From assembly GCF_056746865.1 (NCBI RefSeq), contig NZ_CM163382.1: DNA of 64,000 nt; one strand, 5' to 3'. This document shows, piece by piece, positions 1 to 12,000 of the stretch. Made by a program: the position numbers. The stretch's first letter is position 1, and each line of letters opens with the position of its first letter.

Positions 1-3000
1 GAAAATCTCTGCCACCAATACGTTCCATGCCCTCGCTACGGAATGGCACCAGCATAAATCTTTGTCATGGTCTGAAAGTTACGCCAGAAGCGTACTGGAA
101 GCGCTGGATAAAGATATTTTCCCGTATCTGGGCAAACGAAGCGTTACGGATATCCTCCCGCTGGAAATGCTGGAAATTCTGCGCCGCATAGAAAAACGTG
201 GCTCGCTGGAAAAACTTCGTAAGGTGCGTCAATACTGTAATCAGATTTTTCGTTATGCCATCGCCACCGGACGAGCCACTGTCAATCCGGCATCTGAACT
301 GACCAGTACGCTGGCGGCGCCAAAAGCTGCACATTTCCCCCACCTGAGAGCAGATGAGCTCCCTGTTTTTCTCCGGAAGCTCGCTGAGTATCATGGCAGT
401 CCTGTTACCCGCATGGCGACAAATCTGCTGCTTCTGACAGGTCTCAGAACCATTGAGCTACGGTCCGCTGAATGGTCAGAAATTGATTTTGATAATGCAC
501 TGTGGACAATCCCTGAAAGCCGCATGAAAATGCGACGTAAACATGTCGTACCACTGTCACGACAGGCCACTGACATTCTGCTGCAGCTCAAAACTTTCTC
601 CGGGCAATACCGGCTGGTTTTTCCGGGACGTTGTGATATCAACAAGCCAATGAGCGAAGCCAGCATCAATATGGTGCTCAAACGTATCGGTTACGATGGC
701 AGGGCAACCGGTCATGGTTTTCGTCACACCATGAGTACCATTCTGCACGAACAGGGCTTTAATTCTGCCTGGATTGAAATGCAGTTAGCTCATGTGGATA
801 AAAATTCCATCAGGGGTACCTATAATCATGCCCTGTATCTCGATGGTCGCCGTGAAATGATGCAATGGTACGCTGACTACATTGATTCACTTTCCATCCA
901 GGAGAGTTAATTACACTTTGTCCTGAAATTATTCTCACAATCAATAACCTTTCCCTCTGATCTGTAAGATCAGAGGGATTCCGTTAACTTACAATAAGTG
1001 ATATTGGTTGTCTGGAGATTTAGGGGGACGGTCTACTATAATAATTAGCAGGAGATAATATGTCACTTAAGGCGATTGCCACTGCACTCGGAGTTTCTGT
1101 CACCACTGTCAGTCGGGCTCTTGGAGGCTATGCAGATGTGTCAGCTTCCACCCGTGCACGGGTGGAAGCTGAAGCTCGTCGACGCGGTTACCGTCCTAAT
1201 ACTCAGGCAAGAAGACTCAAAACCGGTAAAACCGATGCTGTCGGTCTGGTTTATCCTGGACGTGATGTGCCATTTAACAGTGGTGTTTTTATGGATATGG
1301 TCAGTTGCATCAGCCGGGAACTTGCTCACCATGATATTGACTTACTACTGATAGCTGATGATGAGCATGCCGATTGCCACAGCTATATGCGGCTTGTTGA
1401 AAGTCGCAGGGTTGATGCTCTCATCATTGCACACACTCTGGATGACGATCCCCGTATCACACACCTTCATAAAGCAGGTATTCCATTTCTGGCTCTTGGT
1501 CGGGTACCATCTGGTCTGCCCTGTGCGTGGTTTGACTTTGATAATCATGCCGGGACTGGACAGGCAACCCAGAAACTGATTGCTTTGGGACATAAACGTA
1601 TTGCATTGTTGAGTGAAGACACTTCACATAGCTATGTTGTTGCAAGACGTCAGGGATGGCTTGATGCACTGAATGAGCATGAACTGGAAGATACATGGCT
1701 GCGGCTGGTTTCTCCCACACGGCGAGCAGGATATCAGGCCGTGATGGAGTTAATGTCACTACCGATACCACCAACAGCTATTATTACTGACAATGACCTG
1801 AGTGGAGATGGTGCTGCCATGGCACTGCAGTTGAGCGGTCGTCTTTCAGGAAAAGATGCGGTATCTCTGGTTGTATATGATGGTTTGCCACAGGACAGTA
1901 TTATTGAGCTGGATGTGGCTGCAGTTATTCAGTCAACACGAAGCCTCGTTGGTCGCCAGATTTCCGAGATGATATATCAGATAATTACTGATTCATCATC
2001 AAAACCACTACAGGTTGTCTGGAACCCGGTATTTTATCCGGGAAAGACGATTCATCCTCCTTGCTCCTGATTTTTTTATCCAGCTCACATATCCGAAACG
2101 TTTTGGTTGATACCCGAAACGTTTCGGATCAACAGTAAGGCATCCCTGAGAAAGGAGAATGTCTTATGGTTTCAAAGTACTGCAGACTGAGCAGTCCTCG
2201 CTCTGATTTAATTATTAAAACCCGTCCACATGCAGAAATTATCTGGTGGGGCTCTGCACTGAAACATTTCTCACCGGATGACTGTGCCAGCCTGGAAAGA
2301 CCGGTTGCGAATGGTCGTCTGGATATTGATACGCCACTAACACTGATGGCTGAAAATGCCCTGGGACTTTTTAGCTCTCCGGGACTGGAAGGACACAGGA
2401 ATGGGCTGGATGCATCTCCTGTTTTTTATACAGTTGACGTGGAACATACCGAAAACACTCTGAGACTTACCAGTGAAGATTCGGTAGCCGGCCTGCGTCT
2501 GGTCAGCGAGCTGGTGATGACGCCATCAGGAATTCTGAAAGTTCGTCATGCACTGACCAACCTCAGAGAGGGGGACTGGCAGATAAATCGTTTCGCCATC
2601 ACTTTACCTTTAGCGGAACGTGCGGAAGAAGTCATGGCTTTTCACGGACGCTGGACTCGTGAATTTCAGCCGCACAGGGTACGTCTCACTCATGATGCTT
2701 TTGTTCTGGAAAATCGCAGAGGGCGGACATCTCATGAGCATTTTCCGGCGCTGATTGTCGGCACGCCAGGCTTCTCGGAACAACAGGGAGAGGTGTGGGC
2801 TGTGCATCTGGGGTGGAGTGGAAATCACCGCATGAGATGTGAGGCAAAAACTGACGGCAGGCGTTACGTTCAGGCTGAGGCTCTGTGGATGCCGGGTGAG
2901 AAGGCTCTCAGGAAGAATGAAACCCTGTACACCCCGTGGCTATATGCCTGCCACTCTGCGGATGGCCTGAATGGAATGAGTCAGCAATACCATCGTTTTT

Positions 3001-9000: not shown

Positions 9001-12000
9001 TGCCGGGAGATTGTCAGGTCATTGACCGGGTGTGAGCGGCTCGACGTAAGCGGTAGATATGCCCAATTCCCCCCGATAAATTCATTACCAAACACATTAT
9101 TCAATTTGTTTTTATTTTTCCGCTTTCAGTCATTATCGCTATCGCTTCGTCGGTAATGACTCCAACTTATTGATAGTGTTTTATGTTCAGATAATGCCCG
9201 ATGACTTTGTCATGCAGTGGATTTGCCCCTATATTTCCAGACACCTGTTATCACTTAACCCATTACTGGCCCGCTGCCGTAGATATTCCCGTGGCGAGCG
9301 ATAACCCAGTGCACTATGCGGATGCCATTCGTTATAATGCTCGAACGCCTCTGCAAGGTTCTTTGCTGCCGTTAACCCGTCTGGTTTGGGCATGATACTG
9401 ATGTAATCACGCTTTATCGTTTTCACGAAGCTCTCTGCTATGCCGTTACTCTCCGGACTCCGCACCGCCGTGTTCTTCGGTTCAAGTCCCAACATCCGGG
9501 CGAACTGGCGCGATTTAGCCCCGACATAGCCCCACTGTTCGTCCATTTCCGCGCAGACGATGACGTCACTGCCCGGCTGTATGCGCGAGGTTACCGACTG
9601 CGGCCTGAGTTTTTTAAGTGACGTAAAATCGTGTTGAGGCCAACGCCCATAATGCGGGCTGTTGCCCGGCATCCAACGCCATTCATGGCCATATCAATGA
9701 TTTTCTGGTGCGTACCGAGTTGAGAAGCGGTGTAAGTGAACTGCAGTTGCCATGTTTTACGGCAGTGAGAGCAGAGATAGCGCTGATGTCCGGCGGTGCT
9801 TTTGCCGTTACGCACCACCCCGTCAGTAGCTGAACAGGAGGGACAGCTGATAGAAACAGAAGCCACTGGAGCACCTCAAAAACACCATCATACACTAAAT
9901 CAGTAAGTTGGCAGCATCACCCGCTTTGAAGTGAACAATAACCAGGGTCGTTTCGTATTTCCGGATACCTGGTTTGGCCCATTACTGGGGGAGTTTGAAG
10001 AAGTGCTTGATGCATACGACACTGATGAAATCAGTGAGACGGGTTATATCAACAAACTCAGACGCCTTGCTCAACAGGAGCCTGACTTTATTGATATACA
10101 CGCTCATCTGGCATATGCATTTCTGGAGCAGAATGCCCCGCGTAAGGCACTGAACGCCGCTCTTAAAGGACTGGCGGCAGGTAATCGTCTCATCCCGGAA
10201 AGTTTCAGTGGTGAAATCATCTGGATGCATCCCGAAAACCGCCCTTATCTGCGCGCGCTTTATGCAACAATTCTCGCAAATGTGCACTTACAGCGTCATC
10301 AGGATGCGGTTATGCTCACTGATAAAATACTGGCATACAATCCTGAAGATAATCAGGGTGCCCGCTGGTTGTTGGGCTCAGAACTGTTACGAACAGGCGA
10401 TCATAAGCAAGCCTTCAGTGTACTGAAAGAGCATGCTGATGAATTTTCACCTTACTGGTATGAACTTGGTCTTCTGCATTTTCTGAATGGGGAACATGTT
10501 AAGGCTGCCACAGCTTTTCGTCATGGCTTTGCTACAAACACTTACATCGCGGAAATGCTGTGCGGAAATTTGCATCCATTTCCACTTGCTGTGCGGCATA
10601 ACTTCTCCGGCTCTCTGGATACGGCAGAAGATTACTATGCAACATACTCACCATTATGGGGACAATATCCGGAAGCATTGCTGTTTGTAAACTGGCTCTA
10701 TAACCATTCCTCTGTGCTGCATGAACGAGCAGAAATCATTAAATGCGCCGAAATGCTGATGCAGGAAGATGATTTCGAAATATGCGAAAGCATTTTAAGA
10801 CAGCAGAAGCTGTTGCGGGAAAGAATTGATGAGACACTTTCTGAGGAAATTGTACAGAAATGCAGAAATATTAACGGTGAATATGTCTGGCCCTGGATAT
10901 TGCCGTTTTCAGCAGCAGGAATGAAACACTCAAGCATCCAGCATCAGTAGATATTGCATTAGTGTATCTTTCAAACAAGTAATAATTTATCCACCAGTAA
11001 TAACACAGTCCCCCTTCCCCAGGTTATCGCCCTGGGGGCATTTTCTGAAAGTTTCCTTTAAAAAAGAATAGAGTCGTAAATTACTTTAACGAATTATTCC
11101 TGGAGTTCATTAAAGTTCTTTCGTAATACTTTGTAATCAAACACGTTATGACTGGCATCAAAAACCACGGATTTCCCCTGCCAGCGGGTAATCACCTCCT
11201 CCGGCGTTTTCGGTTGAGCCGGTCTGGTTACGCCCATCCATGCATTAATCAGATAATCATTATACGCAGTGGAAAAAACGCTGTTCACCGTCTGGCGATC
11301 GACATGCTCTCCCAGTGCCGGGCTGTACCAGATAAACATCGGAACATGATAAGCCTGCTGACTGGGTTTTATTCCACCATGAAAATAGGCATGTTCTTTT
11401 GTCGGGTCATACTCCAGACCGTGATCTGAAAAATACATGACGGATGCCTGACGCGTTTCCAGCATGGTGAAAACCTGTCCCAACAAACTGTCGGTATAAT
11501 GAATGGAATTATCGTAACAGACTTCTTCTGTATCCAGCGGTTTAAACACGGCTTTATCTCTGGGCCAGTTACTGCAAACCGGTTCATGGCTGCCCGTCAG
11601 ATGCAGAACAATCAGTTTCCTGCTCCCCGGATTACTGTTCAGTGCTTCAGCCAGGTGTGGGAGCAGTAACTCATCATAGCCTCTGACATAAATTCTGTTT
11701 CTGGCCCGCATGGCGATACTGGCCACAGCCGTTCCGTTCTGTCGGAAAGCGGACTGCGCACTGAGCCACCAGGTATCGAACCCCGCCTGATTCGCCATGT
11801 TGATAATGTTATCAGGGTAATTACGGATATCATGATGCAGTACACTATCGGCAGATAACGCCAGTGGAACAGCCAGCGCGGTGTAAGGTGCGCCACTGAT
11901 TGCCTGAGTGAACAGTTTCAGTCGTGATTTCTGTTTCTGAAGCTCTGGTGTGGTAGGGCGCGAATACCCGTAAATGGACATGTTATCAGTCCTTGCAGAT

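Follow-up and report, generated by a model that had tools for sequence, protein, structure and literature searches.

The raffinose operon of an Escherichia coli tRNA-Phe island lies between IS2 and IS1 remnants that probably arose in separate events

Introduction

The roles of the raf genes, and their repression by RafR, are established for the raffinose system of plasmid pRSD2. Its operon (rafR, rafA, rafB, rafD and rafY) is reportedly the subject of work by Aslanidis, Schmid and Schmitt in 1989-1990 and by Ulmke et al. in 1997. A second point of comparison is provided by composite transposons such as Tn10, Tn5 and the IS1-flanked Tn9, in which a cargo stands between two IS pieces of one family. 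The operon is found in the chromosome too. One passage of a paper on E. coli Sanji describes, in that strain and six others, a 69.2-kb chromosomal insertion with rafRABDY, a resistance cluster and toxin-antitoxin genes, and the same passage is silent on IS relics, on a pheV/pheU dimorphism and on any relationship to plasmids (PMC6392093). The rafY gene has been reported to be associated with chicken E. coli (PMC12987596).

Here we analyse a stretch of 64,000 nucleotides (the window; contig NZ_CM163382.1 of assembly GCF_056746865.1) in which a raf operon lies beside an integrase and between two pieces of IS2. The Sanji chromosome matches positions 900-9950 of the window at 100%. A preliminary description of this DNA had taken the locus for a former IS2-flanked composite unit, captured into an integrative island. 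Comparison with relatives leads us to another account. In all likelihood raf is the first cargo of an E. coli tRNA-Phe island (pheV/pheU), and the flanking IS pieces are inert scars of separate events, so that no IS2 pair is needed for movement of the operon.

Results

The raf operon of the window is complete, as had been claimed: the five ORFs from rafR to rafY are all intact, each has a family match (Table 1), and operators are predicted. rafR stands upstream of the structural genes and points in the same direction, and the GH36 alpha-galactosidase, LacY-family permease, GH32 invertase and RafY glycoporin follow downstream in the expected order. For rafB we use the RefSeq start; the mechanical ORF begins at 4289. 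Two palindromes flank a TTGATA sequence (-35) upstream of rafA and are predicted to be sites for RafR. With genes and predicted operators intact, the operon looks functional. The pRSD2 operon is made up of these five gene families, ordered alike, and likewise has twin palindromic operators flanking the rafA -35; unlike that plasmid-borne operon, the copy here is chromosomal and lies inside a tRNA-Phe island. By analogy with pRSD2, raffinose would pass through the outer membrane by way of RafY and be imported by RafB, RafA would cleave off galactose and RafD would cleave the remaining sucrose, while RafR would repress rafA-Y via two operators around the -35 of the rafA promoter. The raf lineages of K88-type plasmids are 91-95% identical to the window over rafR-rafD and 83-90% over rafY. 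A contig scan of genomes with RafR gave only distant LacI-family proteins (27-31% identity) and no native chromosomal source of raf.

Table 1. Features of the integrase-raf region, in window coordinates
Feature	Position	Strand	Evidence or remark
P4-type tyrosine integrase, 3' 302 codons	2..910	+	NCBIfam PRK09692, E 9.5e-70
Hairpin, perfect 11-bp stem (CCCTCTGATC..GATCAGAGGG)	952..978	.	self inverted BLAST match; between integrase and IS2 relic
Solo IS2 IRL relic	995..1035	-	38/41 vs IS2A positions 41->1; E 4e-11 within window
Promoter-like site TGGAGA-18-TATAAT, upstream of rafR	1013..1042	+	scan, 10/12 matches; putative
rafR, LacI-family repressor	1060..2070	+	Pfam LacI + Peripla_BP_1
Twin operator palindromes CCGAAACGTTTTGG and CCGAAACGTTTCGG, 21 bp apart	2093-2106, 2114-2127	.	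predicted RafR sites
rafA, GH36 alpha-galactosidase	2166..4292	+	Pfam Melibiase, E 2.7e-113
rafB, LacY-family oligosaccharide/H+ symporter (permease)	4355..5632	+	Pfam LacY_symp, E 2.6e-209
rafD, GH32 invertase	5632..7062	+	TIGR01322, E 5.7e-138; one cluster member named raffinose invertase
rafY, outer-membrane glycoporin	7257..8651	+	Pfam PF16966 (Porin-like glycoporin RafY), E 3.5e-148
Island backbone DNA, no relation to raf	8684..9151	.	continues into BRO-N domain gene in IS1-free relatives
IS1 right end (IS1A 703-768)	9152..9217	-	100% identity
IS2 3' fragment incl. IRR (IS2A ~1025/1039/1045-1331)	9218..9504	-	96% identity; tip at 9218
IS1 left part (IS1A 1-417, incl. IRL and insA)	9505..9921	-	99.8% identity

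The distance between the integrase stop at 910 and the rafR start at 1060 is 149 bp, in keeping with the 150 bp given earlier. The integrase starts upstream of the window. In identical genomes it is a gene of 394 aa that adjoins tRNA-Phe, and in one of these the full gene has Arm-DNA-bind_3, Phage_int_M and Phage_integrase domains. The tRNA-Phe site lies outside the window, 176 bp upstream of the integrase, and is pheV in strains H9Ecoli and PKF11 and pheU in EC1515 and TUM18780. The integrase-raf module is a single co-inherited unit, present at pheV and pheU alike, with one and the same integrase protein at the two sites. Among sampled matches the 3' part of this integrase allele is always accompanied by raf, other integrases being at most ~92% identical. 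Exact repeats of at least 12 bp of the tRNA 3' end are absent from the window, and the island may reach past it. The hairpin downstream of the integrase may be its terminator, a putative assignment; a terminator scan of 880-2300 did not call it.

Beyond rafY comes backbone DNA of the island, which in EC1515 runs on into the BRO-N gene. Strain C11 has this backbone at 95% identity without raf, and was considered as an empty site; there the backbone adjoins a truncated hemagglutinin gene and not the integrase, so that C11 gives no clean empty site. The window also contains the resistance genes floR, tet(A), aph(6)-Id, aph(3'')-Ib and sul2.

The left IS2 piece is a relic rather than an element. 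It has no orfA/orfB transposase, no IRR and no 5-bp target duplication, and nothing is left past 41 bp. MAFFT suggested that the relic extends further inward, but the IS2 similarity inward of the 41-bp repeat has a local score under the shuffle mean and a colinear score reached by 85 of 1000 shuffles. This is non-significant, and the extension is therefore rejected. We also searched for a fuller copy with a synthetic IS2-into-rafR query. In none of the 72,556 plasmids and 5,426 E. coli genomes does the IS2 sequence at the left site exceed 41 bp, and the top matches are all two-piece.

Alignment against IS2A bears out the IS2 origin of 995..1035, yet not all of this segment is IS2. The plasmid allele has a perfect 41/41 IRL followed by an additional ACGGTCTA, and the junctions can be compared directly: in the plasmids GGGGGCCAGTCTA is joined to ACGGTCTACTATAAT, and in the window GGGGG is joined to ACGGTCTACTATAAT. 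The window allele has thus lost the genuine IS2 tip through an 8-bp deletion, to which two of the three mismatches are due. The true IS2 part is 995-1027 (IRL positions 41-9), while 1028-1035 is flanking ACGGTCTA, a look-alike of the missing 8-bp tip. Judged from the sequences compared, the left relic is old, and common to all chromosomal and F-plasmid copies of this raf lineage. The ancestral state would be a solo 41-bp IS2 IRL 32 bp before rafR, whose 8-bp tip would later have been taken by a small deletion in the chromosomal lineage.

At the right-hand side the IS2 fragment is nested in IS1 rather than abutting raf DNA. Its identification as an IS2 3' end with the IRR is upheld, and it encodes the C-terminal 104 aa of IS2 TnpB (residues 198-301; NCBIfam). 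It is cut at the junction with IS1, where there is a 6-bp CTGGCG microhomology (9505-9510), and has no complete element, no IRL and no 5-bp target duplication. Both ends of the IS1 are intact; positions 418-702 are missing, so that insB is destroyed. Set against the reference elements, the left relic is the 41-bp IRL and the right piece carries the IRR; unlike a complete IS2, both are without a transposase gene and without a partner end. Alignment places both IS2 pieces on the minus strand, with their tips toward raf; the left piece is thus of IS2 origin and the two are not in opposite orientation, in agreement with the preliminary description. Its further claim that the unit is presumably no longer mobile also stands: neither piece could move the operon. 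Both outer ends are absent.

How old is the right-hand IS2? Chromosomal relatives with the identical int-relic-raf module fall into graded states. IS1 is absent from EC1515, and in TUM18780 it is intact, with no IS2. PKF11, FXCREC004 and 23CRST007 have a 66-bp IS1 end and a full IS2, and the window type has IS1::IS2-delta. The left relic is identical in all of these. Judging by a spread sample of 476 records, about half would be of the window type and a few per cent would have IS1 only or no IS, with ~170 of the plasmid type. The left IS1 junction of the window, where CGCTTCGTC meets GGTAATGAC, is also present in TUM18780 and PKF11, and the 66-bp IS1 end recurs at the corresponding place in FXCREC004 and 23CRST007. 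Graded states on the right beside a constant relic on the left argue that the right IS2 is a late and independent arrival.

The states can be arranged as a series of four steps. IS1 would have inserted 500 bp beyond rafY, and the DNA past it would have been replaced via IS1-associated rearrangements. IS2 would then have inserted into IS1, at IS1 position 702/703, and a deletion at the CTGGCG microhomology would have cost IS2 ~1040 bp and IS1 285 bp. There is no 9-bp target duplication at any IS1 copy, and thus it is by inference that we take the first step to be a simple insertion. Where IS2 is full, its IRL is followed by other DNA, and none of PKF11, FXCREC004 and 23CRST007 shows an arrangement of IS1 end, full IS2 and remaining IS1; for the last two steps we therefore argue from the colinear IS1 halves of the window.

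The raf region of F-type plasmids shares the left relic with the window, and does not have the right IS2 fragment. At least 150 such plasmids carry window 151-8844, with a 5'-truncated integrase and the relic; in pIP1206-type plasmids the identity over this segment is 98.5%, and rafR is 98.8% identical to the plasmid copies. The IncF raf region of pIP1206 itself (NC_010558) shares the solo IRL along with the rest of 151-8844; there a full IS2, with no target duplication, truncates the integrase at window position 151. Unlike the window, pIP1206 has an IRL relic with an intact tip, and its downstream IS1 is uninterrupted and in the opposite orientation. At their far side the plasmid copies carry 160 bp of island backbone (8684-8844). 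Together with the truncated island integrase, this backbone points to flow from island to plasmid.

Discussion

We consider that the operon would have travelled within its integrase-bearing island, at pheV and pheU, and in addition as a slice of that island on F plasmids. With the IS2 pieces probably from separate events rather than from a composite transposon, the locus is an ordinary one that hundreds of sequenced genomes already have. The raf operon, its location in a chromosomal island and IS1/IS2 debris beside accessory genes are all familiar biology, and the importance of the analysis is mostly limited to annotation hygiene. Two fragments of one IS family that face a cargo are by their geometry no evidence of a composite transposon, and relatives decide the matter quickly.

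An older role for IS2 can be entertained. In two other raf lineages an IS2 or IS2-like element lies directly upstream of rafR, with its IRL toward rafR, and IS2 may thus have had some earlier part in moving raf. Taken further, the left IS2 alone might have brought the raf core to the island or joined the two, one-sidedly, by cointegrate resolution, adjacent deletion or IS2-IS2 homologous recombination, and have been deleted down to its terminal repeat afterwards, with the right-hand IS elements later and unrelated. The relic lies 11-19 bp from the onset of raf-lineage homology (1044-1048), and full IS2 copies without target duplication form junctions elsewhere: between fae and raf in a K88-type plasmid (L013), with the IRL toward rafR, and with the truncated integrase in pIP1206. 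We nevertheless think this fusion doubtful, since the ancestral tip is parted from the conserved raf core by ~19 bp of unassigned DNA, there is no surviving intermediate, and nothing explains why a deletion should stop precisely where the repeat ends on its inner side.

The direction of flow between plasmid and island could in principle be reversed, raf having entered the island from an F plasmid by homologous recombination via the truncated integrase and backbone pieces. Segment 151-8844 is common to plasmid and chromosome, and the IRL is the less degraded in the plasmid allele. Yet a 5'-truncated integrase is no source for the full gene beside tRNA-Phe, the 3' part of this integrase allele occurs only with raf in the sampled matches, and backbone 8684-8844 is present on the far side of the plasmid copies as well. 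An origin of this kind is improbable. Thus of the earlier proposal of capture, what holds is that raf is cargo of an integrase-bearing island; entry of a plasmid-borne module is not supported by the comparison.

Least credible is that two direct IS2 copies once flanked raf, delivered the operon beside the integrase and then decayed: both pieces are IS2-derived, on one strand and with inner tips facing raf, and IS2 recurs beside rafR in other lineages, but the right copy sits in IS1 and is missing both from relatives with the identical left relic and from the plasmids, the outer ends and target duplications are gone, no locus examined has an IS2-raf-IS2 unit, and the plasmid and E. coli genome collections hold no fuller left copy. 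Other contexts have the left relic with no IS, with IS1 only or with IS1 and IS2 at the right, and the plasmids have IS2...raf...IS1. The bases beside the inner tips are unrelated (CTATA, ancestrally ACGGT, against TGCAG) and uninformative for a composite unit. Unlike the two copies of Tn9, Tn10 or Tn5, the pieces here differ in age and context. The composite reading is thus not supported by the comparative evidence.

On the account that we prefer, in which raf is island cargo, a tRNA-Phe island of this kind appears to be the origin of the common IncF raf region. We hold in even balance a more specific proposal: that the IncF raf regions (at least 150 records) are slices of this island cut out by IS2 and IS1, each with truncated integrase, solo IS2 IRL, rafRABDY and 160 bp of backbone, and that loss of the 8-bp tip in the chromosomal lineage may have created a promoter for rafR (TGGAGA-18-TATAAT) by fusion of IS relic and flank. 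If so, the slices would document island-to-plasmid transfer of a catabolic operon, of modest interest for tracing the spread of dietary-sugar operons. A literature search gave nothing linking raffinose with pIP1206, or the raf operon with both genomic island and plasmid, and a paper on pheV-island evolution does not mention raf. As for the promoter, the scan calls no site on the + strand of the plasmid allele, which is 8 bp longer, and in the window it calls a putative site whose -35 hexamer falls within the IS2 relic.

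Raf operon and its flanking insertion sequences

The raf genes and operators are intact, and the preliminary description was right to call the operon complete: five uninterrupted reading frames are present (see table), and the gap between rafR and rafA contains two 14-bp palindromes, CCGAAACGTTTTGG and CCGAAACGTTTCGG, spaced by 21 bp and bracketing a TTGATA hexamer. We take this twin arrangement around TTGATA to be the layout described for the pRSD2 raf operators, and the operon would be expected to work as it does there.

Features of the integrase–raf region in window coordinates. 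Insertion sequences were compared with IS2A and IS1A of E. coli K-12.
Feature	Window	Match
Tyrosine integrase, 3′ part	start–910	NCBIfam PRK09692, E 9.5e-70
Left IS2 relic	1035→995	IS2 1–41, 38/41, E 4e-11, minus strand
rafR, LacI-family repressor	1060–2070	intact ORF, protein family match
rafA, GH36 alpha-galactosidase	2166–4292	intact ORF, protein family match
rafB, LacY-family permease	4355–5632 (start per RefSeq)	intact ORF, protein family match
rafD, GH32 invertase	5632–7062	intact ORF, protein family match
rafY, porin	7257–8651	intact ORF; Pfam ‘Porin-like glycoporin RafY’, E 3.5e-148
IS1 right part	9152–9217	IS1 703–768, 100%
Right IS2 fragment	9521→9218	IS2 1025–1331, 96%, minus strand
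IS1 left part	9505–9921	IS1 1–417, 99.8%

The operon had also been proposed to be a former IS2-flanked composite transposon, and this is not supported. Comparison with K-12 IS2A places both flanking pieces on the minus strand with their tips toward raf, as had been described. The pieces are real, with two corrections: the right one lies inside an IS1, and the left one has lost its tip. They carry neither transposase genes nor partner ends. The retained ends are the inner ends and the outer ends are gone, so that raf could not be moved even with transposase supplied in trans. We infer that the only role of IS1 and IS2 here is to provide breakpoints and portable homology.

Left junction

The left relic is a solo left inverted repeat (IRL), with no IS2 similarity inward of its 41 bp. 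At this site the pIP1206-like IncF plasmids read GGAGATTCAGGGGGCCAGTCTA joined to ACGGTCTACTATAATAATTAGCAGGAGATAATATG, a perfect 41/41 IS2 IRL followed by ACGGTCTA. The sequence in the window and in four other chromosomes is GGAGATTTAGGGGG joined to ACGGTCTACTATAAT. Comparison of the two alleles therefore indicates that the true 8-bp tip CCAGTCTA was lost in the chromosomal lineage; on this alignment the apparent IS2 tip at 1028–1035 is look-alike flanking DNA. A small deletion between GTCTA repeats is favoured. An 8-bp insertion in the plasmid allele is much less likely, as it would have to recreate a perfect IS2 end by chance. A synthetic query of 400 bp of IS2 joined to the ancestral tip and rafR gave two-piece matches only among 72,556 plasmids and 5,426 E. 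coli genomes, and no relative there has a fuller left IS2 copy.

Homology among E. coli raf lineages (including loci L010, L011 and L013) is confined to the interval from 1044–1048 to 8653–8657; it starts 14 bp before the rafR ATG and ends shortly after the rafY stop codon. The region upstream of rafR is different in every lineage, and so the rafR promoters must differ between them. In a K88-type plasmid (L013 7565–8895) a full IS2 without target duplication lies 105 bp upstream of rafR with its IRL toward the gene, and in pS30-1 (L011 7330–8666) an IS2-like IS3-family element, oriented the same way, lies 335 bp upstream; neither locus carries another IS2 at the far end of raf. Judged from these junctions, IS2-type elements have repeatedly formed the left boundary of raf DNA, and this recurrence makes it plausible that the left relic was once a complete IS2.

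A promoter-like TGGAGA-18-TATAAT sequence (1013–1042) straddles the relic and its flank, arising only with the 8-bp deletion. Fusion promoters that take their –35 hexamer from IS2 are known (Jaurin and Normark 1983, as cited in PMC9330008), and a putative relic–flank fusion promoter is offered here as an idea only. Another, ‘ends-only’ IS2 relic of 86 bp (54834–54919, minus strand) lies directly past an IS3-family orfA-like reading frame; it is made up of 49 bp resembling the IRR (84% to IS2A 1283–1331), 15 unrelated bp and a perfect 22-bp IRL tip.

Right junction

Colinearity of the two IS1 parts places the right IS2 fragment within an IS1. IS2 and IS1 meet in CTGGCG, which is common to both elements. 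A microhomology deletion leaves this signature, and here it would have removed ~1040 bp of IS2 together with IS1 418–702. The IS1::IS2-delta chimera (9152–9921) is 770 bp, very nearly the length of IS1, with both IS1 terminal repeats kept, and in principle could be moved by IS1 transposase in trans. The ORF at 9229–9672 is an IS1/IS2 fusion pseudogene.

A search with window 8300–9400 returned 476 records, and right-hand states were compared in fetched examples, all with identical integrase, relic and raf genes. EC1515 lacks IS1, and its raf flank is continuous with a BRO-N domain gene. TUM18780 carries an intact IS1 exactly at the window's left IS1 junction and lacks IS2. In PKF11, FXCREC004 and 23CRST007 the 66-bp IS1 end is joined by a full-length IS2 exactly at the window's IS1/IS2 junction; in the window type the IS2 is truncated. 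The DNA past IS1 or IS2 is different in every example and no 9-bp IS1 target duplication survives in the fetched loci, which marks IS1 and IS2 as breakpoints of rearrangement. Most simply, IS1 would have inserted first, IS2 would have entered that IS1, and a deletion would have come last. None of the relatives showed the exact IS1::IS2::IS1 intermediate, so the last steps are ones that we infer. In FXCREC004 (L019 6250–6300) an inverted backbone-like copy similar to window 8684–8725 lies past the IRL of the full IS2, which points either to an inversion associated with IS2 or to recombination with another island.

Island context

The full-length integrase shows the P4-type set of domains: arm-binding, central and catalytic. 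Integrase WP_001218742.1 and the raf module are identical at both tRNA-Phe sites, pheV (H9Ecoli, PKF11) and pheU (EC1515, TUM18780). The module thus occurs at two tRNA-Phe sites, and it is also found on plasmids. The island probably moves by integrase-mediated recombination. The module at 1–9151 is identical in L002, L014, L015 and L016, and the island DNA past 9151 is wholly different in each.

The pIP1206-type plasmids (at least 150 records at coverage of at least 80%) match window 151–8844 at 98.5% identity. Their integrase is cut at position 151 by a full IS2, in the same orientation and without target duplication. Then follow the solo IRL, raf, ~160 bp of island backbone (8684–8844) that is more divergent than raf, unrelated DNA, and an oppositely oriented IS1 without interruption; the right-hand IS2 fragment is absent. 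Among sampled E. coli hits the 3′ part of this integrase allele occurs only together with raf, other integrases being at most ~92% identical. With its truncated integrase and far-side backbone, the plasmid copy resembles a piece cut from an island; it does not look like the source of that island.

This arrangement of the locus is already known and is widespread. The Sanji chromosome matches window 900–9950 at 100%, and PMC6392093 describes a 69.2-kb insertion with rafRABDY and a resistance cluster in Sanji and six other strains. In the window a resistance cluster (39158–46022; floR, tet(A), aph(6)-Id, aph(3'')-Ib, sul2) lies ~30 kb from raf. The minus strand at 11094–12767 encodes a phosphoethanolamine transferase (557 aa) that belongs to the EptA/CptA/MCR superfamily; it falls below every curated cut-off and is therefore not a named MCR.
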